NCBI GenBank assembly: GCA_003427395.1
Contig: BFEA01000012.1
Location: 4,487,762 to 4,540,812, forward strand
Reading direction: 5' to 3'
DNA from: Chara braunii
Lineage: Eukaryota > Plantae > Charophyceae
DNA length: 53,051 nucleotides
The position numbers were made by a program, and so were the translations under genes. This document shows positions 5,362 through 53,051 of this stretch, one piece after another (position 1 is the first letter of the stretch; the number at the start of each line of letters is the position of its first letter). A model generated the notes under the pieces. The model was not told where the DNA came from and ran no database searches. It was given only the letters and a program-made list of their open reading frames with translations.

Positions 5362-8300
5362 GCATCGCCAGAACCCGCCACTCGTGTTCGTGCCACGGAC
5401 TGACGGAAGGACGGAATTTTTCCCTTTTTTCCTTTTTTCTATCCATGCAACGTAATCCATCCCATCCCACACCCACAGGTGGGTTTGACAGGTTCGTTTG
5501 CCCCTTCCTCCCTCCCTCCCTCCCTCCCTCCGCCCACCCTTCTCCCTGTCCAGATATCGACCACGGTAGGAGACAACCCGTTCACCCCCGTGCATCCAGT
5601 AGGCGCCTCGGGGGGCTGTGGAGGGTGGAGGTGCGACAGGCGCGGAGTCCATGCGGATGCAGCGAAGCTCCCCTAGAGAGAGACTATTATGTTGGTCACG
5701 CACTAGCGCCCAGGGGCCGAGACCGAGTAGGATGTCGGCTGAATGATGATAATGATGAAGTCTTGGGTTCAAGTTCGACGTGAGTTCGAATCGCGAGGGG
5801 GTATATTCCGCCCATCCTGAGTGGTAGAAAAATGAAAAAAAGGAAAAACGCGCAATCAGAATCTTTTACCGTTGTAAGAAGGGGGGGAATCATTATTTAT
5901 CGCTGACATTTCCCGTCTGCCGGCAGGAGGAGAACGATCGCGCTGGCCCGCCGGCGAGAAAGAGATCCCTCTCTTGCCGCCCTTTTTACCTTTTTCGGAC
6001 GGATTTTTGGTGACGATCGATGTATGGCGGGGGACACACGGCCTGGCCGCACTGCTCAAACAAATGTGTGAAATGGCACATGGATTTTCTCATAGAATGT
6101 GGGAAGATACACGCGCCATAGCTTCGGTATTTTTCGGATTCAATTCAGTGAGGCGGTATGGCGAAGGTCCACAGCTGCTCGCAATCAGTTTTTCCAACGA
6201 AAAATGATATTCATATTTTCATATTTTCATATATTCATATTTCATCCCTCCCATGTGCGACGAGGCGGCGTGCAGTGATTTCACGCTGTGACGCTGGACG
6301 CCGCTCACCACGCCAATCGCCGGGTAGCTTTTGCCAGGATGGCCAGCCACGAAGGCAAGCCGACACGACGGACATTTATTTTGGATTTTTTCTCACTGAT
6401 GTACGACGCAACCGGTGGCGGCCGTGAGAGAGAACGAGACGAAGGAAACCGGCTGGCAAAGGCTCTCGCTCCACTACTGTCCACTGTCCAATTTCGGATA
6501 GTGCGACGTCTCTCCACTTGCTGTCTACTGTGCAAGTACAAAATTGGTCGGACCATGGGAAATGGGGCAATGCCTGATCACCCCACATCGCCGCCATGAG
6601 GGGCTGACGGCCTACAGTCTTCACCCGAAAATAAAGAGGCGGGCGTGATATTCAACTTACCCTAAAAAGATCAGATTTTCCTTTTTACTCTCTTTTTCTT
6701 AAATAGACACCCCATAGAATAGAACGCCTGGGCGTTATATGTGAATGTTCCATGGGCAGAGTGCCGTGTAGAGGTAGTAAACATGGGTTTTTTACAGGAT
6801 TTGCTGAATTTTGTTTTCTTATTGAATTTGGGCCCCCCACCAAAGTTGCCATAAATTTACTGAATATAACGGTTGGGTGTCGTCGAGCGCATCGGTCCCG
6901 CAGGGAAACCCTCCCGGGCAATGGAGCTTTTGTCACCGCTCCGGTCGAGTGCGCCAGCCATACCTCTCGTGAACCCCTACGACAGGATAGGGCCACTCAA
7001 GGTATAACTTACCTCCGCCCAAGGGGTTGTCACCACCCTTGAACGGGCGTATACCCATCGAGCTACCGAATCACGTGCGAAAGTTAATCAGTTGCAATAG
7101 CAGAGGTAGCCCCGCTGAGGGTGTTTTCTCGTACATTGTAGCACAGGGGATACGCGTGGTCGCATGCCTCTATCGGACCCATCCGTGAATCGACGCACTG
7201 GAGGGTTGAAGTCCCAAGCGCGACTTATCATCGTCAACTAGGACGTATCCTTCTTACCACGCATTACACCACGCCAAAGACCAATGAATTTTATTACTCA
7301 CACAAACAAAACACTCCTAGTCCCTTCAGTATCCAACCCATAACCTTTCGACACAAAATTGGTTGGGCATCATGCGCAAGACTTAAGATAAAACGGCATG
7401 AACGGAAGGCTTTCTCGTACCGACTAGCCATGTCCTAATATGCGAGCAGTCGCAATGATGATGTACTATGTAGTACTCGTAATTGTGCGACCCTCGATGG
7501 TCTCAAGGGTCGCGTCCGGCACGCATGTGTCGGCTGACACACGCCTTGAGGGATTAATCTCTCGACGCTAAACAACCGCCAAGGCAGTTGAGAGGTCTGC
7601 CCTCTTCTGCACCTTGCGGAGAGTGAGTGGTAAACAAGTTCAGACCTCTTTGTCGCGGCCAGCACTTATGGTCTTCGAGACGCGCTCCATCATCCACGGT
7701 CTGAGAGAAGTCAAGGGGTTTGACTTTGAGGGTTGTCATGGACATCAACGTCCAGCTATAAAAATTTCATAAAGAAAGAGCAAACGAGGATTTTTTTTTT
7801 TTTTCAAAACATATTCGTTCAACTTTTACACACGGTCACTGTAGACCACGCGAATGCTCATAATATATACATTCACACATATGTAAAAGGGTATAAGATA
7901 TGAGACGATCACTTCTCATAATCACGGTGAAACTTCCTTCAAACATATGTATGCGATGGCAGACAGAGTCAAATCCTGAGTTCAAACCACAACCATACTT
8001 GTAATCACATCAAAGATTCGACCAAAAGTTATCGCACTACATGGGTCAACTTCAACCACTTTTTGCGCTCGTACCCCTTGCTTTAGTCAAACCAGCCTCC
8101 CCCTTTGCCCAACCTTCCATAATAAAATACTCAGTATCTTTGTTAAATGACCATTCAATAACGTCTGGGTGAAAACCCAACAAAACAATTCAAACCACAG
8201 GGGCTTAAGCCTTTTAGGTTTATGAGCGAGAGTGAGTTAAAGTTGAGTCGTAAACCGCCGAATCAGCAACCGGCATGTTATCAATGATTACAAAAGATGA

Positions 8301-8559
8301 TCCTCGTGAGATCAAGTTGAGACTAGTCCGATCTTGAATTGAAGTGATTAAAAATGACCTGCAACACAGCGCAGGTCAAACCTCAAGACTAAACTATAAT
8401 TGTATGAAGAATAAACCTCCATACAATGTTTCACTCAAGTCCTTCGGATAGTTATGAGGTTTAAATCTATCTCTAAGCAAGTGTCAAAGGAAAGGGAGAC
8501 CTTTGGTAACATCTCCCCCGTACAGGGTGGATCGTCAGAATATTCGCTATGAGAATATA

Positions 8560-9200
8560 ATCTAACTTTGTTGAAGTAAGAAAAATTCGACAGCACTTCC
8601 TGTAGGAAAAGTACCTTCTCGGAATTTATATTCGTTCGAATGTGAAAACTAAAATTGTCATCAGTTGTAGAGAGTCAAATTTTGTCTGACTTTCTTATTT
8701 AACAAAAAATAAGTTCCTTTAGAGAAGTAGACTTTTCATATTTATACTGAGTCACATCAGAACTCGAAACAATACTTGAGTTTCTGTTAAGTCAAAATTT
8801 AACCAACTCTTTATATTTGTAGAAATTTCGACATCACTCCCTCTAGAGAAGTGTCAATCTAAAATTTATACTAAGTTGATTTTAACTTTCCAAAGCCAAA
8901 TTTTATCGAACTCCCTGAATTAGCAAAAAAATTCATAGAAAAGAAGGTTTTCCATATTTTTACTAAGCCAGATATAAAGCTTATACAAAAGTTGAGTTTT
9001 GAAAAATTAAAATTTAGCTAACTGCTTCGTTTTGTTGAAATTTCATCAGTGTTCCCCGTAGAGAAAGTAGCTTCCCGAAATTTATACAGAACCAAGTAAT
9101 ATAAAGGATCTAATAAAATCCGAGAATGTGAATTAAGTAAAATAAACTTAACTCAAAAAATGGAGGAATTTAACTAACTTCTACAGCTCCAGCACGCGAC
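8560..9200. repeat. Diverged ~120-bp tandem repeat inside element A (ortholog in B at ~33960-34640)
   Basis: Recurring TAGAGAAGTAG...AAATTTATAC motif at about 120-bp period. Confidence 0.6.
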
Positions 9201-9302
9201 GAGCATCTAAAGCAACTACCTATCAAAGTTTAAATTCATACTAATAGAAGTTTATACTCATCCACAATATTTAGTACTCTCCCCACGTCCCAAAATGGAA
9301 CC

Positions 9303-11079
9303 AACATCGAATTTGTGAAAACCTAACAAAATCATAAAACCTAACATTTTTTATAGAATGAAAAAGTAAAAGTCAAACTGTTATTTTTGACACATAAAAT
9401 ATTTTAACTGTTTCCCGATAAAAAAGGCAAAAAAAAAGGCAAAAAGTCTAGTGATTCTCAAAATGTGCAAGAAAATCATTTCCAACAAAGAGCATGTTAT
9501 AAAACTATAAGTCGTTCTCTGTAGACTGACAAAAAACATAACTCAAATAAGATAATATTTAAGGACTTCAAAGGGCACTCGAAAGATGTTAGAAAATACA
9601 GTTTCAGTATATACTCATTTGTAGAACTATAAGTCGTTTTCAACAGTTTGGTAAAAATCAAACTTTGCGAAAACTAGTTTATAGAACTATAAATTAATAT
9701 AAATTCATTTTTAAGTTAACTGTAAAACCCTTGTCCAAAAAATATATGTTATGTAAAAGAATAATTCAAGCAAGTTTTGTTTGGAAGACATCCTCAAATT
9801 TTTAGTTAACCACGATTTAAAAAAAAAATATATTTATATATATAGAGAGAGAGTTGCCAGGCCGAACGTACGGAGGACCCTAAGCTGACCCCCGAACGTT
9901 CGGACGTTGGGGACCATCGAAGGGGTTCAGATTTCGCAAAAAAATATTTTAGTACCTAAAAATTATTTTTTTTTTTCTGATTTTTTTTTGTGTGTTCTAT
10001 GTTATGTAAGCTACCTGTCTATCAATTTTGAAGTCATTCTGTGGAGCCAAACAATAATGAAAAATCGGCAAAGATGGTGGTGTCAAAACTTCATTTCCCA
10101 CTTACTAATTTGTTTTTTTTTCTCTTTTCACTTTTTGTTTTCCCTTTTATTTCGGGGCCTGAAAAAAATTATTATTTTTTCAAACTTTATTTCTAGGTTC
10201 ACTGTTATGTAAGATACATATGTATAAAATTTCATGGCATTTGACAAAGCCNNNNNNNNNNNNNNNNNNNNNNNNNNNNNNNNNNNNNNNNNNNNNNNNN
10301 NNNNNNNNNNNNNNNNNNNNNNNNNNNNNNNNNNNNNNNNNNNNNNNNNNNNNNNNNNNNNNNNNNNNNNNNNNNNNNNNNNNNNNNNNNNNNNNNNNNN
10401 NNNNNNNNNNNNNNNNNNNNNNNNNNNNNNNNNNNNNNNNNNNNNNNNNNNNNNNNNNNNNNNNNNNNNNNNNNNNNNNNNNNNNNNNNNNNNNNNNNNN
10501 NNNNNNNNNNNNNNNNNNNNNNNNNNNNNNNNNNNNNNNNNNNNNNCCGAACGCGTCGAGAGGGGCTCCCAAACGTTCGGGCGTTCGGGTTTGGGCGTTC
10601 GGCCCGTCTCGAACACCGAAAACCCTGTACATATATATATATATATATGTGTGACGATATATATATATATATAATAAAAAATAATATATTCGTCCATGTA
10701 GGAGAGGACATATGAGAGCGAATGTATTCGTGAACGAGAATATGTGTGCGTCTTTGGAAAACCCCCGAGTAGGTTCGTCGTGCTACATACCTTCTAGAAT
10801 TATAAATATTATTTTTTTAATAAAGAAAAAAATGGGGTATTTCAGTTTCTGAACAAACGGTGCTTTGCGAGGTAGTGATTTTTTGTAAAAAAACTTGTTT
10901 CTCTCATCACCACTTCCAGTGGTTCGAAAAAAGTAATTTTGTGTTCCTTTTTTGTTGTTAATTTTTTTCACATATAATTTTATTCATGTAGGAGGCCTTA
11001 ACAATGTACTATCAGGAACTTTAAAAAATTTCGTGCAAACCTAACAATTTTTTTTATAGGTTTTCACGAATCCTATGTT
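9303..11079. mobile_element. Non-autonomous TIR element with 4-bp TSD (AACC) nested in A
   Basis: TIRs AACATCGAATTTGTGAAAACCTA and TAGGTTTTCACGAATCCTATGTT; AACC at 9299-9302 and 11080-11083; absent from the orthologous site in B (~33870). Confidence 0.75.
9845..10627. mobile_element. Non-autonomous DNA element with CCGAACG subterminal repeats in a (TA)n tract; spans gap 10252-10546
   Basis: Starts GAGAG/GAGTTGCCAGG, ends CCGAAAACCCTG; CCGAAC/GTTCGG motifs cluster at both ends; similar motifs in 34762-35112. Confidence 0.5.
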
Positions 11080-11149
11080 AACCTTGTCAACAATAGTTCA
11101 TATTCTCTCAATAATATATTTATTTTTACCCAACTTATATAAAGTGTAA

Positions 11150-11905
11150 GTTGGACCATTCATTGAATATACACAAAGACAAAGCAATATTAACTTTCTC
11201 TTCTTTGGGCATGTGACAAGATCATTCAACTTAGAATCAACGCCAAGTCGCCGTGAACAGTTCAAGTAGCCAAGTTATATATAATTTTTTGCTCTTAATC
11301 TTTTAAGGTAGCATAGGACCGAACCGTTCAGCTTAGAAACAAAGTGCAAGCTGCCCCTTCTTACCATCAATTAATATTATTAATCAATACTATTTTTATT
11401 ATGATAAGCTATAGTCAGACCATTCAACTTAAAAACAAAGTCTGACTAGCCTGTTCATAAACTATACTAGTGATAGAGTATAAAAAAAATTATTTATTAA
11501 TTTTGTTATGTGCGTGACTCCAAACCAAACCATTCAACTTAGAAATAAAGTTTGATCCTTCACCCGATCTCCCTAAGAATAAACAAAAAATATTTTGAGT
11601 CATTTAACTTAGAAACAAAACTCAAACCTTTTTTTTCATAAACAATAAAGAAACATAAGGAGACTGAGTTATTCAACGTAGAAACAAAACTCAGTCTCGC
11701 TTAGAAAATCCCAAAGTAAATCAAGGCGACCAAGCTATTCAACTTAGGAACAAAGATTGGACCCTGAAAATGCAGTCGTTTGCAACCCTCGCAAGTCAGA
11801 GCAACCAAACCATCCAACTTAGGAACAAAGTTCGTTCTTCCAAGCAGTCAAAATAAAACATGGCACTGAGTCTTTCAACTTAGAAACAAAGTTCAAACTT
11901 TGGTT
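11150..11905. repeat. Array of ~9-10 constant-loop hairpin repeats (CATTCAACTTAGAAACAAA) in element A
   Basis: Motif recurs every ~60-110 bp; several units are flanked by unit-specific inverted repeats, e.g. TAGTCAGAC/GTCTGACTA (11412-11448) and GAGACTGAGTT/AACTCAGTCTC (11660-11698). Confidence 0.85.
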
Positions 11906-27940: not shown

Positions 27941-29433
27941 TGTCAGCTTGAATACCCTTACAAGGGTACCTGCCCTTGTTTTTACAAGTGACAGAGATGA
28001 GACTTGGATTGAAGATTGGAACCTTTGAATACGTGTGGTCGGTTTTCCGATGGTCAACGGTGTGGTTAAATAGTACGACAAAGCAGAGAGTGTGTGGACG
28101 CGCAAATTCCAGGTGCGAGTGAATTCTTTTTGATATGTCGTAAACCGACATTTGTTTTGCTGGAAATGTTTACTTTGATAAAATTAGGATTAAACGATCT
28201 CTTCGTTTAGTTGGTATGTCTGTTTGTGAGGTGTATGCATGCGAGGAAACGAAATTGCAGTAGCCAGCGTTAGGTTTGAGTACTGGTGCCACGGTTAAAA
28301 GTAATTACCTTGGCTTTTATTTAATGCGATGTTGGAGCCTGCGTAGTACGTAGTGCAATAGGGCGCCTCATTGTGTTTTGCCCGCCAATAAGAAATCTTC
28401 CGCAGTTCTGGTGACGGCGTGCATAAACAGATTCCAGCATAGACAAGGGTCGAGTTTTCGTCATTAAAATAGTGAAAGTGCAGTTCTGAAAAGGTGACCA
28501 CGTGTGGGGGTCAGGGCCGACAATGGGGCGACCCTTGTGTGGAAAAAAGGTGCGTGCGATAAACGGGTTGAGGTAGTAAAGGTACGACTTTGGAAGGTGG
28601 CTTCTTGTGTGAGCCTGGAGCAACGATGGTGTGACTTTGTGTGATAGGTGGTATGTGTGATGATTATGGGTAAAACCAGGCCTCCGTGCAGCAAAAGTGG
28701 GAGCACGACGACTATAGCTCAACCGGCAGGCCAAAGGTTTGGACTGGGGGAGTCTTATAATGAAGACAAGTTCCCTTTATACTTTACGACCTTGGACTTT
28801 CGACTTGTTGACATGGGGATCGAGGTCAACAGGCGCCGTCGAATGAGCGATGGAGCAGCTTGAAGAGAACCAAGGGGTTGAAGGTCTGGCGGGACTATCC
28901 CTCTTGTTTTGATGTTGACCCCGACCTTTGGGTCAAATTGGATGGACCCACGAGATGCGTACAGTCTCTCCCTCTCTCCTCCGTTGTCCCGACCTTTTTT
29001 ATTTAAAAGTTTCATTTTTGTGACCGAATCAATACCAGTACCGGTGTCGGTTCTGGAACCGGTGATGAAACTAACAGGACCGACTCAATTGCTACACTGC
29101 ACCTGAACTATCAAAATACAGACCTAAGTTTGGATTTCACTATAAGCAAATGAGTAAACGAGTCTCAGTCCTTCGGGACATCCGTTAAAATTTGAGCGAT
29201 ATAGAGGAGATAAGCATTGCCCTTGTGCAAGGGTGGCGTGCCTGAATCAGAGCAGGATCCATATTTTGGTCACCACGATTGCCTCGCTCCCCTCCTTGAT
29301 CCTGGTCGGCTCCAAATGTACTCGAGTGTTGGAATAGACTACGTATGTAGTTAGGGGCATTATTGAGACGAGTAGGCCCGATGATATCGGGGCGATGTTG
29401 CTTACTATGAGTACGTGAGGTACTCTGGTACGT
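27941..29433 (+). mobile_element. Copy D (more diverged) of the TGTC-terminus family, interrupted by copy B
   Basis: Starts TGTCAGCTTGAATACCCTTACAAGGGTACC; contains a tRNA-like remnant (~28780-28840) and a U6 copy; probably resumes at 36781. Confidence 0.65.
29168..29268 (+). pseudogene. U6: U6 snRNA-derived copy (diverged) in element D
   Basis: GTCCTTCGGGACATCCGTTAAAATTTGAGCGATATAGAGGAGATAAGCATTGCCCTTGTGCAAGG...CCATATTTTT; ACAGAGA box mutated; TATAAG at about -27. Confidence 0.85.
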
Positions 29434-29935
29434 TGTCGGTGTGAATACCCTTATAAGGGTATCCTCCTTGTTTTTTGCAAGAAACAAAAAATAAGTTTGG
29501 TTTAAAATTTGAGTACACCGCGCAAGTCGAGGTTGTGTTTCAATTACGCTGACTAAGTGGCTGACTAGGAATAGAGAGTGTGTGAGCGCGCAGACTTAAG
29601 ACGCGCGAGATCTCTCTTTTCTGATGATTGTGAAGCCAGCATGGTTACCAACCAAAATGTTTGTTTTTTATTTAAATTAGGATTGCAAGATTTCATCTTT
29701 TTATTGGTACGTTTAACCGCGGCATGTGCGCTCGTACAGAGGACGACATTGACGAAAATGCGACTTTGAGTAAAGTCAGAGTATGCGAAGGAATAGGTGT
29801 GCGGAAGGCGTGGAGCTTGGCGGCCGTGGATTTAGTGGATAAGTCGAGGTATGGCTTTGATACGTTTCAATAGGCCCTCGCGCCTTATGATACCCAGTTA
29901 TATAGTTTGCCGCTAGTGGTAGGCTTAGCCTTGGG

Positions 29936-30007
29936 CCTAACATTATTGGTTATGGTGTCGGACTTTCATCTGGGAGATTCAGGGATTGAGGCCAATAGGC
30001 GACGACG
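29936..30007 (+). pseudogene. tRNA-Glu-like remnant in element B
   Basis: TGGTTATGGTGTCGGACTTTCATCTGGGAGATTCAGGGATTGA, orthologous to the remnants in A, C (~38358-38425) and F. Confidence 0.5.
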
Positions 30008-30237
30008 CAGGATATAACGGATCAGCGTGAAGGGACCGAGGGGTTGAGGAGCCTTCGAGGTGATCCCGCATGGTTTTGGCTGACCTACAGGGCCGAGGTT
30101 GCCCTTCATTTTTCATCCGGCTATTTGCCTATACTGTGGGGATTATTAATTTTTATTATATTAATGTTATTTGTTGTTTATCTTCTTTAAAGCAAGGCGT
30201 GGTGCCGTGTTTTAGGGGCGCCCAACCTGATCATCCA

Positions 30238-30309
30238 CGATCTGCTGTGAGAGATTTGAGTGTGAGCATGCTGCTGGGGCCCAAAAGATGGTGGACTATT
30301 GCCCGGGGC
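30238..30309 (+). pseudogene. Decayed 28S rRNA fragment (sense) in B
   Basis: GATCTGCTGTGAGAGATTTGAGTGTGAGCATGCTGCTGGGGCCCAAAAGATGGTGGACTAT versus LSU GATCTTCTGTGAAGGGTTCGAGTGTGAGCATGCCTGTCGGGACCCGAAAGATGGTGAACTAT. Confidence 0.8.
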
Positions 30310-30349
30310 ACTACAGGGAGACCGCAGCAAACGCTGTGGCAAGCTGCAG

Positions 30350-30490
30350 GTCACATGGAACCCTTCTCCACATCGGTCTTCGAAGTTCTCAGTTGAGTGT
30401 CTACTACTACCACCGAGATTTGCGTCGAGACCCGCTTCGCCAAAATGCGCGTTACAGGTTTCAAGTTGCGGCAGATCGCACCCGCGACTC
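30350..30490 (-). pseudogene. Decayed 28S rRNA fragment (opposite orientation) in B
   Basis: TCACATGGAACCCTTCTCCACATCGGTCTTCGAAGTTCTCAGTTGAGTGTCTACTACTACCACCGAGATTTGC matches the reverse complement of the LSU GCAGATCTTGGTGGTAGTAGCAAATATTCAA region. Confidence 0.8.
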
Positions 30491-30695
30491 CGTGAATCGC
30501 CTATATGTGTGTGAGCATGTCTAGCGTGGCTGGCCCAGAACACTCAGGCAAGGGGGTCTGAGACTGGTATCGGTGATTGTACCAGTCTTCCCAGCCCAAT
30601 TGGTATGCCCATGGGCAGTAAAAAACAGAAACGGAGCTTAGACCAGGAGGTTGCCTAGCCTCCAGGAAGCGCCATGGGGCATGGGCCCACGTGAA

Positions 30696-30803
30696 GTTCT
30701 TCGGGACATCCGTTAAAATTGGAACGATACAGAAAAGGTTAGCGTGGTCCCTGCGCAAGAATGACACGCATAAATTGAGATAAGCAGACACCTCCTTTTT
30801 TTT
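30696..30803 (+). pseudogene. U6: U6 snRNA-derived copy in element B
   Basis: GTTCTTCGGGACATCCGTTAAAATTGGAACGATACAGAAAAGGTTAGCGTGGTCCCTGCGCAAGAATGACACGCATAAATTGAGA followed by a T-run; ACAGAGA is changed to ACAGAAA. Confidence 0.92.
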
Positions 30804-33024
30804 GTTATTTTCTTCTACTCGTTATTTTTCTTCCTACGAGGCCATTCCTGTCGGATCGATCTCGCTATCTGCATTATGTGAACAAGAGGGAGAGTTGACC
30901 TCAACAAACACGAAGGGAAAAATAAGCAGTGTGGGAGTGAAAATTGTTTGGCTTACCCGTTTCCTAACGATAACGAGCGAAGGAGGAGTTGAAATGGGGG
31001 TTCGGGGGTATGGCAGACTGAATGGCGGAGTCGGAAGTGGGGTTAAGAAAAATGACGAAGAGGTATATTGGAAAAGGAGTGTGTGGAGCGAGTCGAATGT
31101 GACGAAGAGTAGAATGAGAAGGAGTTGGAGTTTACCTGATCTTCGATAAAATTGAGTTGGTAAAGAATCGATTTCTGGTGTTTTGACACATGGCGGGTGG
31201 AACAATAGTGTTAGATTCGACATAGAGGCGATTGTCTGGCCGTTGGGGGTAATATAGCCTGTGCGAGGAGTTTGGTCATGTACCTGGCCCCGTTCTAGCA
31301 GAGGGTTCATTCGTACCGTTGAATGCTAGAGAAGGAGGGAATACTTACCGCTGAAAGCCAACGACAAGAGACGGGGTCGTTATTGCGTGGTATTGTAATC
31401 ACCGCTTGGGTGCTTGTCAAAACCGGGATCACTACTTTGTTTATACGTTGGACTGTGATCGCGCCGCTAATAGTAATCGAGCAACTGCTCACTATCTGTT
31501 CCACACGTAACCGCCCATCCAGATTGCAGTTTTATCGCCCATCTCGTGCCCCCCACCGAGTTATGCGCTCACGAGGATGACCGCTATTGCGGTTGTACTT
31601 GACCTCGTAGTCACTATTGGAGCTGCCTGGGTTCTCACTCCTCCGTTGATTTCGATTGCATATAGGTGGGTTGGCCAAGGACACTGAGGCAATAAGGGAT
31701 AGTAGGCGGAGAGGGAGAGGGAGAGGGAGTATCTACCCTGACACGAGAATTTGGCTTGCTTTTTAAGTTGTCGAACTTTTCGGCGTCCAGGTAGCACTCC
31801 TTGCATCCCATGTTTTTCAGACATTCCCGTGGTATGCTGGTTAGAGTGGCGTGACTATCTGGTTTCCTACCATTGCTTCTTGTGGTCGTTTTGATACACC
31901 CACTACCTGGTTCATCGTACCAGCAACCGTTTGTTTGTCCCGACGACGAGACCATGCAAGTTTGTGTGTGGATGTTGTGCGTCATAGGACTGTGAATGAC
32001 TCGTTAAATCTGTTACCTGTTTTCGCAGCTTCTTTACTACTGCGACAATCGTCGCAACTGTGGGGTTGTTACTAGGAGTATATCCCAACCCTTGGAAGGG
32101 GGTGCACTTTGGGATAAGAAGTCGTTCTTGGTCTACCACCGAGTTGCTGGAAGACTTAGCTTGCTGAGACAAACACTGCGGTTGCAATCTGCTAAGGTGT
32201 TGATGATGGATGCCCCGCTGTTGTTACTGACAAGCTCAAAGTACATGTTGTTGCGCACGATGCTGCTTAGCCAAGTCACGCCAAGTTTCGTCCGAGCTCC
32301 AAGTAGAACACGGGGGAGGGACGTGCACTATTTGAACATGACCTTTCTGGACTGCGTGACATCGGTTTGGTTAGAGCTAGGAACATAACAATTTGGAGGA
32401 GCGCGATCAGGGTTTTTTCAAGGGAGTCTCTACTGAGAATTGAAAGGTCACCAGAGAGTTAATGGTTGAAGGTTTGACTTCAGTTGACCGAGCTACTCTG
32501 CACTCTGACAGTCATTGTAGGGCCCTTAGGCGTCTGAAGGATTCAAGGCCCTCTTACGCGAGTCTTAGTGCACCTTCTTTGTATTAGAGAAACTGAAACC
32601 TTTTCCTTCTACCCTTCTTATTCTAAGTCTGGTTTGTTGATTCTGAGAGAAAGACGACAAGAGGGATTGAAACCCGTAATCCGTGCCAAGGACTCTGTGG
32701 GAGGTTGTCCCACGGGAGCTCTGCCGGAACCTAGGCGAGGTTCTGGAGGCAGGGAACTGAGTGGTAATCATCATCCCCTTCTATAACCAGTTAAAACCCT
32801 TACCTGTATATCTTTCTATCGTTTGACTGAGTATACTGCATGCATCACTATTGAATATATGTTTGACTTTCTGAACTTAAATCAAAGTTAAGTAAAGGAA
32901 TGCACTAACATGCGCAGTTTGAGTTTCATTTTTGTTGCTTGACTGAATTCAGATTGAAAATGAGTTGTGAATTTGGCGAAGGCGGGAAGGAGGTGGTTTT
33001 CCTTGCGATTGTTTGGGTTAACTA

Positions 33025-33800
33025 GAGACTGGGCTTAGTTTCTAAGTTGAATGACCCGGTGCTTTGTTTATTTTGACTGCTCTAAGGACTAAACTTTGTT
33101 CTAAGTTGGATGATTTGCTTGCTCTGACTTGTGAGGATTGCCTGCGAATGCATTTTCATGGACCAAGTTTTGTTTATAAGTTGAATGGTTTGGTCGCCTT
33201 GATTTATTTTTGGGTTTTCTGAGTGGGACCGAACTTTGTTTCTAAGTTGAATGATTGAGTCTCCCTATATTTCTCTATTGGTTATGAAAAATGAAGTTTG
33301 AGTTTTGTTCCTAAGTTGGATGACTCAATTTTTTTTATTTTTATTTTGAGAGAATCAGGCGAAAGAGCATACTTAGTTTTTAAGTTGAATGGTTTAGTCT
33401 TGAGTAATGCACATGTTGGAACCAAGGAATAATTCTACATATACTCTACTATTATTTTACTTATGAACATGCTAGTCAGACTTTGTTTCTAAGTTGAATG
33501 GTCCGACTATAACTTATCATCATGAAAAAAGTATTAATTAAGAATATTAATTGATGGTAAGATGGGATAGGCTAAACTTTGTCTCTAAGTTGAATGATTC
33601 AGTCCTATGCTACTTTAAAGGACTAAGAGCAAAAAAATATAAACAACTTGATTGCCTAAACAGTTCAGGGCGACTAGACTTCATTTTTAAGTTGAATGAC
33701 CTAGTTATATGCCCAAATAAGTGAAAAGTAGTAGTGCTTTGTGTTTGTGTATATTCAATGCCCAAGCTAGACTTTGTTTCTAAGTTGAATGGTCTAGCTT
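33025..33800. repeat. Array of ~10 constant-loop hairpins (TTTGTTTCTAAGTTGAATG) in element B
   Basis: Example: AAGCTAGAC-TTTGTTTCTAAGTTGAATG-GTCTAGCTT at 33764-33800; units colinear with the array in A. Confidence 0.85.
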
Positions 33801-34761
33801 TACGTCTTATGTAAGCTGGGTATACGGGATAAATCACTGAGAGATTATGAACTATTGTTGACAAGGTTCAACCTTGGGACTGGTGAAAGTATGGACTTAC
33901 ATGTGGCTGAGTGTGAGCTCTACTTCGTCTGAATTTCAGTTTGATAGGTAGTTGCTTTAGTTGTTCACCATGTGCTATAGCTATAGGAGTTAGTTCAATT
34001 CCTACATTTTCTGAGATGACTTTTTTTTACTTAGTTCAATTCTCGCATTTTCTAGGATCATTTATTTCACTTGGCGTTGTATAAATTTGGAAAAATTACT
34101 TTCAATGGAAGACGCTGCCGAAATTTATAAAAAAATAAAAAGTTTATCAAATTTTGGTATTTCAATGTTCAAGTTTTGTCTAAGTTTTATATATGGCTTA
34201 GTAAAAATATGAATTTTTTTTTTTTTCTACGAGAAGTGTTGCCTGAATGTTTGCTAAATCAAGGAGTTAGAGAAAATTTGACTTTGGGCAGTCAGAATCA
34301 TTTCAGGATCCATACTTCGTTTTGTATAAATTTTGGAAATCTAGTTTCTCTACGGGAAGCGTTGCTAAAATTTCTACAAATCTAAGGAGTTAGTTCAATT
34401 TTATCTTGGCATGAAATCAAGTCTTACTTTGATTTTTTATCCAACTTAGTATAAATTTGGGAAGTCTACTTCTTTAAGAGAGATGTTGCCCAAATTTTTA
34501 CCAATTCAAGGTGTTAGATAAAATTTGACTTTCTACAGTTAAAGGTCATTTCAATTTTCATATTCAGACGAGTATAAATTCTCAGAAGACACTTTTCCTA
34601 CGGGAAGCGCTATCGAAATTTTCTTAGTTTATATGAGTTAGGTTATATTATGATAGAAAATATTTTGACGATCTACTATGTATAAAGGAAATGTTGTCAA
34701 AGTCTACCTTTCCCTGAGCACTTGCTTAGAGATAAACTTATACTTACTATGAGAAAATTTT

Positions 34762-35112
34762 GAGTTGTGTAGCACACCGAACATGTTCGGAGCTTTTTCG
34801 AACGTTCAAATATGTTCAAGTGTTCGACCGAACACTTCCCGAACGTGTTCGACCGAACATATTAATATATATATATATATATATATATTGGTTTTTGATT
34901 TTTAATTCGAGTTTGGTTACGAATTTGAGCATACCTCCCAGAAAATAGTTGTTTGTATTATTATTTTATACAACATATATTGTTTTCAGATTTGTTTTAT
35001 ATCTTTTTTTTTTAAATATATTTTTATGCTCGCATTCGGAGGGTTTTGGTGCTCGTTCGCGTTCGGTCGCGAACGTTCGGGTTCGGTCACCAAACCCGAA
35101 CACGATGCTATG
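34762..35112. mobile_element. Short element with CCGAAC repeats and an imperfect 8-bp TSD, nested in B
   Basis: AAAATTTT|GAGTTG...GATGCTATG|CAAATTTT; absent at the orthologous position in A (~8440). Confidence 0.65.
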
Positions 35113-35654
35113 CAAATTTTGAGTAAGAACGTGATATGGGGACTTGTTCTCCATACACTTATAGTCTAGCTTTGGACATTCGCTTATCTTGTGTTACAGG
35201 TCCTCTTTGATCGATTCGATTCAGGACTGAACTATATTCAACTTGATCCCACGAGGATCATCTTCTGTTATCACTGATAATAGGTCGGTTGCCGATTCAT
35301 CAGTTTACGACTTAACTCGAATTCACTCTCGCCACTTAGTCTAAAGACTTTAGCCCCTATGGTTTGAATTGTTTCGTTGGGGTTTTCACCCGGACTTTAT
35401 TGAATGACCATTTAATAAAGATACATAGTATTTTATTATGAAAGGTTGAACAAAGGTTGGGGTTTGTCTGGTTGAAGCAAGGAGTGTGAGCGCAGAGAGT
35501 GTTTGAAGTTGACCCTCTCACTTTTTGGTTGAATCTCTGATGTGATTGCAGGTATGTTTGTGGTTCAGACTCTGGATTTGACTGTCTGCGATCACTGCAC
35601 ATATATACATGGTTGAAGGGAGTCTCACTATGATTGTGAGAAGTGATCGTCTCG

Positions 35655-35670
35655 TATNTATANANNTATN

Positions 35671-35737
<67 letters not shown>

Positions 35738-35738
35738 N
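35655..35738. repeat. (TA)n microsatellite
   Basis: Directly visible. Confidence 0.95.
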
Positions 35739-46125: not shown

Positions 46126-47190
46126 CTCTCTCTCTCTCACACACACACATAGCCTGCCAGTAGCTTCTTCCCCGTGCGTGGCTCTTCCCGTGTGCACTGA
46201 TTGGTTCCTTCCCGGTGCAGCCCTCGTGCGCTTCGGGTGCATGACCTTACCTGTTACCTGTTCGCTCCTGCGTTCCAAACGCTCCCTCCGCCCGGAAACC
46301 AGTCCGCGAGGGATCAACACACTCCCGTGCGCCAGCTCGTGCTTCCTTCCCGTGCGCAGGTGAGAGTCCCCCGAGAATGAGCCCTCTTGGGCTTGTAAAG
46401 TTTGCTGGTCCCACTGTACCAGCTCCCAGCAGCCAGCTCTCCCCCGCCGTCGGCCGATCAGTGTCGGGAACTTTGCAGCGCCCTGGTACCGGGCCTATGC
46501 CCGAGCCTGTTTGGGCCCCGGAAAGGTCTTTGTCGAGGAGAGCCTTTTTGTCGAGAACCGGACCTTTTGCAGCGCCCCGGTACCGGACCTATCTCGGCCT
46601 TGGTGGTCCCCACTCATAAGTGGTACCAGCCCCCCTTGTGAAAGTCACGCAGGCCCGCCCAAAACTCTAGGTCGTGAGGTCCATTTCTGAGCCTTAGGCC
46701 CGTACCCTTCTCCTCTTAGTGTCGAGGCCCCTGCGTAGGCCATATCCCCACCACTTGTTCACGCAGGGTGTTCTTGAGAATTCGGTCACTCGAGGCAACT
46801 TCGGGCACTGCCGCCGCTTAAGATGTCCGTAGCCTCACGATAAACGCCCGACGCCTCCATTCCCTCGACTATTCCGCCGACCTTTAGTATCATTCCGACC
46901 TTTCGAGGCCGGGCCCCCTTGTCCGACCCCTCGGCAGTTGTCCGTTGTGGTAGCCTCTTTGCGTTCGTTTGTAGCTTATGTCTTAGCCTCTCTCCGCGAA
47001 GATACCACTGTTCAACGCTCAAGCCCTGCTCGAACTGAACGTCGTAGCCCGACCACTCGTTCCGTCAACCTGTCGCGGCATTTTCCCATGGCNGGTGAGC
47101 CCCTGCCAGGTAGAAACCAACAAATGCGAACCTCGTTGTGCGCCCTTGTAAAGGAAGNAAAGGGCGGCGTANGGCTGGAGCCGCCCGACA

Positions 47191-51328: not shown

Positions 51329-52729
51329 TGTCGACCAGTAGAAGGGGTCTGCCGTCACGCCAACCAAACCCTATACCTCGCGCCGTGTCTGTCACCCACA
51401 GGAGGGTCGATCGAGGCTCCTGTGACCTGCAAGAAATCAGTATCCCCAAAATACGCTGATACCGCAATATAAGGCAAGCAACTGTTGACGGTGAAACAAA
51501 TTGTAGAAATGATCGAAATGCGTGTTTTGATTTAATTCAGAATAGTATGAAAGTTCGCACTGCGATCAGGCTCTGGGTCTCGTTCATAGTACGAGTCTGT
51601 AAAATACGTTTGAGTCCCAACGGAACCCGGCCCCGGCAGAGGCGATACCTTGGTTCGCCCGGGTGCGCGACTAGGACCTGTCCCGGGTCTAGATCCAGTC
51701 TGGTCTGGCCTGATCCGGCCGGTCTGATCCCGTCTAGTCTGTCCTGTGTCCGGTCTGGTCTGATCTGATCTGATCTGGTCGGACCCGGTCTGATACGTCC
51801 TGGTTGGGTCTGATCTGGTCTGTTGCGATGCTCTCTGGTCTGGTCTGAACTGGTCTGATCTGATCTGGTCTGGGTCTGGTCGGATTCTGATCTGGTTCTA
51901 ATCTGGTCTGGTCTGGATCTGGTCCAGTCTGTTCGGATCTGGTCTACTTTGGCCTGGTGGTCCGGTAGGGGGGGCTTTCGAGTCCGACTGCGGCTCGGCG
52001 TGCACATCCTTTGTTCATCCGCTCTTGAATCTCCTCACTTTGGCATTCCCAACACGGAGCAGAAACCACATTGCTTCAACATCCGTTGACACCTCTCTAG
52101 TCACCTTGCAGAGTTGAATTGCAATTAAGCTCAACAGAGCTTCTTTCCCTGCCGATTCTCGCAAGCCCCTTCATTTAGCTGTTGTTATTGCGGGAAAGAC
52201 AGTGGAAACCTCGTCGGCTCGTTTATGCGCGTCACTAATCAGGTGACGGGGCATTAGCCCTTCCCCTTGAATGTGGTAGGTAGGGACAACAGTTGTGGCT
52301 TCCAGAGACGGTAGATGTAATAGTAGGAATCTTGTTTGTCCAATCATGCGTGTCACCAGTTAGACGACGGGGCGTTGGCTTCTTCGCCGTCGGTTCCTCC
52401 CTGCAAGATTCCCCGGCTGGAACTTCGCGTGATGATAGGACAATAGAAATCTCGTTAATCCAATCGTACGCGCCGCTAATTAGATGACAAAGCCTTAGAC
52501 TTCTTTTCCCGCGTATTCTTCCAGATCCATTCCCTCGGCTGTGGGATTGTAGACACGAACAGTAGAAACCTCACCCCTCCAATCATAGGTGTCACTAATT
52601 AGATGATGTGGCATTGGCGATCTCATGAGAGTCATAGTTACTCCTGTCGTTTACCCGCGCTGAGTTGAATCTCCTCACTTTGGTCTGTTGAGCGTCGGGG
52701 AGAATCTCATTACATCCACACCCGTCAAG

Positions 52730-52819
<90 letters not shown>

Positions 52820-53051
52820 GTGCACGCGTGCGTGCTGTCCGATTCGCCCTCGCCGCTCGTTCCTCTTACTCGGCAGCTCTTCTGCTGTTTGCGCAGTAGT
52901 GCCTTTCCACACAACAGCTTCTCCCGCGCAGAACTTCACGCAACTTCGTTCCGACTCTGTGGGCAGATCCACTCTTACCTCGCCGCAACTTCTCTCTCTC
53001 CTCGCGTGCACTCCCCGTGCGTTCACACCAGCTTGGTTATGATTGAATCTG
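51329..53051 (-). repeat. 5' LTR (partial, continues beyond the window), including the 28S-derived array at ~52025-52720
   Basis: Aligns with 42388 onwards; adjacent to the PBS. Confidence 0.9.

Follow-up and report, generated by a model that had tools for sequence, protein, structure and literature searches.

Hairpin units with a recurrent loop and covarying stems inside a dispersed non-coding repeat of Chara braunii

Here, we analysed a 53,051-nucleotide stretch of the Chara braunii assembly GCA_003427395.1 (contig BFEA01000012.1, positions 4,487,762 to 4,540,812 of the forward strand; hereafter the window, numbered from its first letter), which contains a row of ten hairpin units, array B, that carry the loop word TTTGTTTCTAAGTTGAATG on stems whose letters differ from unit to unit. 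Two further arrays, A and C, lie in other copies of the same repeat block (Table 1). Judged by its sequence, the window is eukaryotic nuclear DNA, with three copies of U6 and fragments matching LSU_rRNA_eukarya (large-subunit ribosomal RNA, LSU), and is without a recognisable gene.

A search of the whole window for TTTGTTTCTAAGTTGAATG with up to 3 mismatches gave 20 matches against 0.05 expected (maximum 1 in 100 shuffles), of which 9 lie on the minus strand (11223-11890), 9 on the plus strand (33035-33791) and 2 at 41868 and 42368. The tenth unit of array B (33095-33112) carries a 1-nt deletion and was recovered by an 11-mer search. A first-pass annotation of this DNA had reported that the loop occurs about 10 times at 60-110-bp spacing; indeed, array B holds 10 units at 59-109 bp, with loop-to-loop distances of 59, 75, 66, 69, 69, 109, 96, 102 and 93 bp. 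The inverted repeats quoted there are likewise present, namely AAGCTAGAC/GTCTAGCTT at 33764-33800, TAGTCAGAC/GTCTGACTA at 11412-11448, GAGACTGAGT/ACTCAGTCTC at 11660-11698 and ACCAAGT/ACTTGGT at 41990-42025. A covariance-model search returned all ten B units at E <= 1.4e-8, the B units being themselves training rows of the model. With filters off, model R1 gave no further units in the whole window, the best non-array match being 34163-34207 at E = 0.085. This borderline match (+) and another at 8957-8990 (-, E = 2.1) occupy orthologous sites downstream of B and A and may be a degenerate eleventh unit. Tandem Repeats Finder did not detect the arrays.

An alignment of the three copies shows that units 1-10 are orthologous among arrays A, B and C, inter-loop DNA included. 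From the tenth unit of array A the 5' half is missing: comparison of 11150-11215 (-) with 33740-33800 (+) shows that 27 nt are gone, i.e. the 5' arm of unit 10 and most of its loop, and since the deletion is bounded by TTCAATG and TTGAATG it looks microhomology-like. Array C lacks units 4, 9 and 10, and its unit C8 breaks off behind the loop at the start of another repeat (42388).

Table 1. Coordinates of the arrays, of the repeat copies that hold them and of the RNA-like sequences in the window.
Feature	Position	Strand	Remarks
Array B, 10 hairpin units	33026-33800	+	69/90 stem cells pair
Array B units with 9-nt arms, first half	B1 33026-33062, B2 33086-33121, B3 33160-33196, B4 33226-33262, B5 33295-33331	+	
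Array B units with 9-nt arms, second half	B6 33364-33400, B7 33473-33509, B8 33569-33605, B9 33671-33707, B10 33764-33800	+	
Array A, 9 units orthologous to B1-B9	11214-11899 (A1 11863-11899 ... A9 11214-11250)	-	63/81 stem cells pair
Array C, 7 units (C1, C2, C3, C5, C6, C7, C8)	41858-42386	+	42/54 stem cells pair (six units scored)
Conserved leader upstream of array B	32506-33025	+	common to A (12428-11900) and C
Repeat block B, putative non-autonomous element	~29431-36690	+	self-BLAST; sharp edges
Repeat block A, inverted	6918-17009	-	72-77% identical to B; extra DNA 9266-11062
Repeat block C	37851-42388	+	66-77% identical to B; truncated at 42388; U6 39459-39558; LSU fragment 39132-39283 (-)
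785-bp short form	19693-20477	+	5' 460 bp joined to 3' 320 bp; interior including array absent
U6 small nuclear RNA (snRNA) copies	29162-29267, 30696-30800, 39459-39558	+	Rfam, above gathering score
Eukaryotic LSU rRNA fragments, short and internal	45962-46147, 39132-39283, 15699-15770	-, -, +	model positions 2135-2330, 1187-1339, 1231-1302

Each hairpin unit spans ~40 nt. Its unit-specific outer stem (6-10 bp) is separated by a 5 x 2 internal loop from an inner helix of 3 bp, which is capped by a 6-nt tip, TAAGTT. The inner helix, TTC/GAA, lies within the 19-nt loop and joins positions 6-8 with 15-17. In a 21-unit alignment the inner helix pairs in 93.7% of cells and the outer helix in 71.9%, with both-side changes at all 10 outer pairs. 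The inner helix covaries as well, from TTC/GAA to TCC/GGA: its middle pair changes from T-A to C-G in A2, B5 and C1 of this alignment and in 4 of the 5 interior C units, while the fifth, C3, places A with G. The tally for inner pair 19-28 is UA 16, CG 3 and UG 1.

Do the flanks of a loop pair with each other better than expected by chance, as the first-pass annotation had proposed? The duplexes formed by a unit's own flanks have a mean of -7.19 kcal/mol, compared to -4.82 kcal/mol in 604 non-orthologous flank pairings, and none of 5000 permutations equalled this value. Between-unit covariation amounts to 0.452 versus 0.307 +/- 0.026 for column shuffles (0/500 shuffles equal it), and to 0.085-0.199 in registers slid by 1-3 columns. 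Because A and B share ancestry, we redid the shuffle test inside single arrays: in array B alone 74 of 100 cells pair versus 66.1 +/- 2.6 in shuffles (4/2000 shuffles), and in array A alone 66 of 90 versus 57.1 (1/2000 shuffles). The proposal that stem letters change while pairing persists thus holds between units and also within A or B taken alone. Folded one by one against 200 shuffles, the units have a mean z of ~-1.27, with z <= -2 in 6/20 and <= -1 in 11/20; A4 (-5.02), A7 (-3.98) and B10 (-3.42) are the strongest.

The suggestion of a different stem in each unit stands for the unit-specific letters, but the stems are not unrelated. They share the consensus GGACYRRAC / GTYYRGTCC, and consequently shuffled columns pair in 69.8% of all cells anyway, compared to 76.9% observed. 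The unit stems are diverged forms of a single ancestral stem, in a few subfamilies. Stems can differ at up to 4/9 positions and yet pair perfectly, as exemplified by units 7 and 10.

The three arrays also record when this structure was maintained. Among the units of one array, loops are 84-89% identical and stem arms 43-48%, and the spacers are as alike as shuffled sequence (0.70 versus 0.71). As loops and pairing were retained while the spacers diverged, the core alone, i.e. the loop letters and the stem pairing, was kept over a long time. A different picture emerges from the recent duplication of A and B, where loops diverge by 12.5%, stems by 25.9%, spacers by 20.9% and upstream DNA by 16.8%. 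The 81 orthologous stem cells comprise 44 without change, 12 with single changes that still pair, 19 that pair in one copy only and 1 with a single change that is unpaired in both; the remainder are 2 compensatory and 3 other doubles. Cells altered on both sides number 5, against a chance expectation of 5.25. The stems have decayed neutrally since the A/B duplication, and the constraint is gone or weak. In the three-way comparison of the six units common to all arrays (n=54), 29 cells pair everywhere and 18 fail in exactly one copy, so that most mismatches are private losses. At 33058, 33504, 33583, 33682 and 33687, where array B departs from the hairpin or the loop word, most paralogous DNA contigs carry the pairing or consensus letter.

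Compensatory changes beyond chance, the general hallmark of a structured RNA, are therefore found between units and within single arrays, and are not found between the recent A/B orthologs. For the earlier proposal of selection on a single-stranded structure with a fixed loop, this means that the between-unit covariation supports it, but not as selection ongoing at these loci, where 2 of 81 cells are compensatory versus 19 disruptive. It is likely that selection kept the hairpin shape in active copies of the repeat in the past.

The first-pass annotation described the loop as constant; in array C, 5 of the 7 units carry another version. C2, C3, C5, C6 and C7 (41929-42290) have a 21-22-nt loop with two shared 1-nt insertions on stems that are still orthologous to those of A and B: the loop starts with AA, and the insertions are an A following position 8 and a T following position 14. 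The edge unit C8 has the 19-nt loop, and C1 has 20 nt, with the AA start and without either internal insertion. Behind 33780, 5 DNA contigs have the same extra A, as do 4 of 18 reads of RNA run X6, so the second loop version exists elsewhere in the repeat family. Identical indels in five loops exclude independent mutation; the long loops either were copied from one to another, through conversion or template switching, or descend from a subfamily in which all loops had changed together.

The arrays lie in copies of a dispersed repeat. At its 5' edge block B has a hairpin with a T-run (29446-29476); besides the array it contains a likely U6 pseudogene (30696-30800), a tail rich in AT and a ~320-bp 3' piece (36371-36690), and none of its ORFs has a Pfam domain. 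Five copies share a sharp 5' edge with unrelated DNA upstream of it, and the 3' edge is common to 3 copies plus one inverted copy. Many genomic copies (three to five in the window) and defined termini with unalignable flanks characterise a dispersed repeat, and both are found here. As the array lies within a multi-copy non-coding repeat, likely a mobile one, it is not a unique host locus. The hairpin GAATACCCTTACAAGGGTATCC followed by a T-run stands ~12 nt inside the 5' edge of five copies (29446-29476, 37866-37896, 19708-19739, 16994-16964 (-) and 27950-27980) and could be a terminator-like or terminus-recognition hairpin. The junction of the short form falls in a ~25-nt stretch that is found at both 29990-30015 and 36371-36395 of block B; the short form may therefore be a deletion between short direct repeats. 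By eye, we also considered the tRNA-Glu-like look of 29930-30010, which neither ARAGORN nor Rfam supported, and we make no claim for it. For Helitron, long terminal repeat (LTR) and terminal inverted repeat (TIR) readings of the block edges, no hallmark was recognised.

Within the leader, the 74 nt at 32713-32786 are 96% complementary to 12137-12210, the blocks being ~77% alike elsewhere. In DNA run X1, which bears the same species label as the window, 5539 contigs matched 1.8 kb around array B at >=80% likeness. The leader segment is the family's most abundant segment in these contigs (summed depth 102434 at 32683-32743), and 33903-33995 is a second abundant conserved segment. Summed depth is 187-2091 over 33171-33719, ~12000-18000 at unit 10 and ~87000-102000 at the two short flanking segments, compared to 5.5-13.9 for window-identical contigs; as this depth mixes copy number with conservation, we take it only as 'many copies' and not as a count of arrays. 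Some contigs join distant units, e.g. 33056 to 33765 and 33073 to 33477, which suggests copies with fewer units; with a repeated loop, such joints could also be alignment artefacts.

The window holds other repeats too. The repeat that truncates array C occupies 42388-44347 and 51329-53050 (copies ~92-93% identical) and is followed by long (TC)n tracts; gaps of N lie at ~44460-45016, and the assembly carries N gaps and long (TC)n runs. The region 13911-14907 is densely filled with repeats, direct ones of 136-229 bp and inverted ones of ~90-118 bp (up to 92% complementary). Several unrelated microRNA precursor models match it weakly, below threshold; it is probably a long-hairpin repeat rather than a microRNA. 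No ORF translation out of 228 (13 + 149 + 66, a few entered twice) reached the Pfam cut-off, and ARAGORN found no tRNA in the window. The U6 copies have 5' and 3' parts that look plant-like. In the two alignments read, those at 30696 and 29162, the ACAGAGA box is changed to ACAGAAA and AUAGAGG; no obvious upstream promoter elements were noticed at 30696. The plant U-snRNA upstream element has 3 matches with 1 mismatch in the window versus 2.66 expected, none of them near U6. The U6 copies are likely pseudogenes carried inside the repeat blocks. Two of the LSU fragments stand at matching places of blocks C and A. The dinoflagellate spliced-leader word has 0 matches in the window, and CpG observed/expected (0.59-0.99) and repeat-induced point mutation (RIP) indices near 1 are uninformative as to the organism.

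What, then, could such an array have been for? We propose, with a probability of about one half, that it is a row of identical docking hairpins, single-stranded and probably RNA, for one trans-acting factor in active copies of a dispersed non-coding repeat, and that the copies in this window are decaying relics. The covarying stems favour a folded single strand over a duplex DNA site, and ten identical loops in one orientation point to multivalent binding of one factor. The hairpins would present the fixed loop as a multivalent single-strand binding platform, the working strand being the one that carries TTTGTTTC, and the ligand that reads the loop might be an element-encoded or a host protein. 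Selection on the loop word and the stem pairing would act in replicating master copies of a repeat that is or was mobile, and each genomic copy would then decay neutrally. Because selection acts only in the replicating lineage, constraint followed by decay fits a cis module of a (formerly) mobile repeat. Conversion or template switching could have carried loop versions along an array, or the versions could track a changed partner. The choice between RNA and single-stranded DNA and the identity of the factor are matters that we infer.

In its furthest extension this proposal would hold that the arrays speak at least two loop dialects, the 19-nt loop of A and B and the 21-22-nt loop of C, each matched to its own trans-acting protein on a platform of RNA or single-stranded DNA of an undescribed mobile element, with array and protein co-evolving. 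We regard this extension as improbable.

Several observations weigh against the docking-hairpin proposal. As the stems fall into a few subfamilies, there are few independent compensatory events (perhaps 3-6), and 9/20 units fold no better than shuffles. The strand signal is flat. Since an A.C mismatch on the motif strand is a wobble on the opposite strand, the two counts can be compared directly, and 31 G.T versus 23 A.C in 225 cells (p = 0.34) is no significant asymmetry; the first-pass annotation's use of G-T wobbles as plus-strand evidence thus falls away. The flank duplex is more stable on the motif strand in 16/26 units only (Wilcoxon p = 0.40), and whole-array folding gives z = -1.55 for the motif strand and -3.29 for the opposite strand (20 shuffles each). 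No array B transcript was found: in RNA runs X5-X7, which are oligo-dT runs of which 6-13% each was read and in which small or non-polyadenylated RNAs would be missed, depth at >=95% likeness is 0 over 32805-33719. At 80% likeness the array depth is only 0-8, from paralogs, while paralog reads cover the flanks. On the 74-nt leader stretch the first mate of these poly(A) paralog reads is on the minus strand in nearly all cases in X5 and X7. We infer mobility from copy number and sharp edges alone: by eye, no target-site duplication (TSD), TIR or LTR was noticed at the block edges, and no Helitron TC/CTRR ends and no element protein were found.

Could the array instead be a functionless, satellite-like internal tandem repeat, whose hairpins are by-products of an ancestral palindromic unit and whose loops were homogenised by short-tract conversion or by template switching during replication or reverse transcription? 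The five interior C units, with two identical loop insertions on orthologous stems, do need copying from loop to loop, and the contigs that join distant units are consistent with unit gain and loss; stems unconstrained since the A/B duplication and the lack of RNA reads on array B fit as well. Loop conversion, however, leaves unexplained the perfect pairing of stems as different as those of units 7 and 10, the covariation above shuffles within single arrays and the covariation of the inner helix from T-A to C-G, and spacers at the shuffled level beside a surviving core argue for selection on the core. We consider this explanation unlikely, though less so than the two other rivals.

A lower standing is given to an array of double-stranded DNA binding sites, in which a DNA-binding protein (for instance a transposase, transcription factor or chromatin protein) would recognise the 19-bp word, the inverted flanks being a secondary feature. 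Such a design is known from the subterminal repeats of certain DNA transposons and from arrays of enhancer or terminator boxes, and ten long words in the same orientation, 59-109 bp apart, in a repeat and near a sharp conservation edge would suit it, as would mismatches without strand asymmetry and array B transcription undetected in poly(A) RNA. A duplex site would not account, however, for the base-pair covariation of the flanks and of the inner TTC/GAA helix, and no candidate protein is encoded in the window; we hold it to be distinctly improbable.

Weakest is a host non-coding RNA gene cluster, i.e. a polycistronic, perhaps intronic, precursor that would yield some ten small hairpin RNAs or serve as a scaffold of long non-coding RNA, with pseudogenes as the window copies, which we judge very doubtful: the small covarying hairpins with a constant loop, the leader whose 96% 74-nt stretch matches poly(A) reads of paralogs and the small-RNA genes or pseudogenes next door (U6 x3) would agree with it, but Rfam gives no match at gathering or permissive thresholds, stems of 6-10 bp are shorter than Dicer-type precursors need, no box C/D or H/ACA was noticed by eye (no motif search was run), the family is very abundant and decays at the array locus, and the ACAGAGA boxes of the U6 neighbours are mutated.

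If the docking-hairpin proposal is true, the arrays would provide a clean natural case of selection on a structure and a loop word inside a repeat family, whose dead copies record neutral decay and serve as an internal control, and a search for the factor that reads the loops could start from their two dialects. Genome scans would call for caution as well, since between-unit covariation would then be proof of past constraint on master copies but not of function at the inspected locus. Should the array be an ordinary satellite-like module, only the annotation of a repeat-rich, gene-free region would be gained. The array copies here are decaying and hence a modest curiosity; the design and the two loop dialects are the curious part.

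How does the array compare with known systems? Rfam gave nothing on the arrays, either in the whole window (gathering threshold and E up to 1) or in 32600-34100 (E up to 10). A microRNA cluster was rejected: a pre-miRNA has a stem of ~21 bp or more with a conserved mature sequence and a variable loop, whereas the stems here are 6-10 bp and variable and the loop is conserved, and no microRNA family matched at E up to 10. For a small nucleolar RNA (snoRNA) cluster, with its boxes C (RUGAUGA) and D (CUGA) or ACA/H, no Rfam model matched in the arrays and the boxes were not noticed by eye, no motif search having been run. We read the array as a structured module inside a repeat, and no known family matches it.

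A constant word at ~60-110-bp spacing recalls a CRISPR array, a likeness that the first-pass annotation had already called superficial. Rightly so, as this is eukaryotic nuclear DNA with irregular 59-109-bp spacing, the constant part is a loop and not a palindromic repeat, and the spacers are orthologous between the three copies. A loose two-copy 11-mer pattern hit at least 119 loci in a metagenome scan, cyanobacterial CRISPR repeats among them, with which only 11 nt are shared; of the two loci read, one is a cyanobacterial-type CRISPR array and the other an unrelated tandem repeat. The full loop word (<=3 mismatches) in a hairpin-array context was found in 0 of 124 scan loci. The same two-copy pattern gave 5 unrelated loci in a viral scan, and exact 18-mer scans of viral and prokaryote collections gave 19 and 52 loci with one match each, as chance predicts. 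A literature search for such tandem stem-loops in transposable elements turned up nothing relevant, which does not show that such arrays are undescribed.

Three systems resemble the array in parts of its design. The 3' untranslated region (UTR) of the transferrin receptor mRNA carries five iron-responsive elements, protein-binding hairpins which resemble the units described here in that one strand carries several of them in succession, alike in loop and different in stem; in contrast, our array has no gene or UTR context and belongs to a multi-copy repeat whose copies are not conserved. RNA viruses have dispersed packaging-signal stem-loops, and stringent LINE reverse transcriptases recognise 3' stem-loops. 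By analogy, the array might share with these a fixed loop on pairing stems of free sequence, repeated for multivalent binding. It differs from them in that the window yielded no gene for a capsid, Gag or reverse transcriptase protein and no RNA reads came from the array itself, and in that its loop of 19 nt is longer and has a small helix of its own. Finally, internal tandem repeats occur in transposable elements, such as the central repeats of Helitron-like DINE-1 elements and the UTR repeat arrays of plant LTR retrotransposons. Here, only a covarying hairpin core of ~40 nt is conserved between unalignable spacers. With these internal repeats the array has in common that it is short, sits in a dispersed non-coding element, apparently varies in unit number and decays in its copies.

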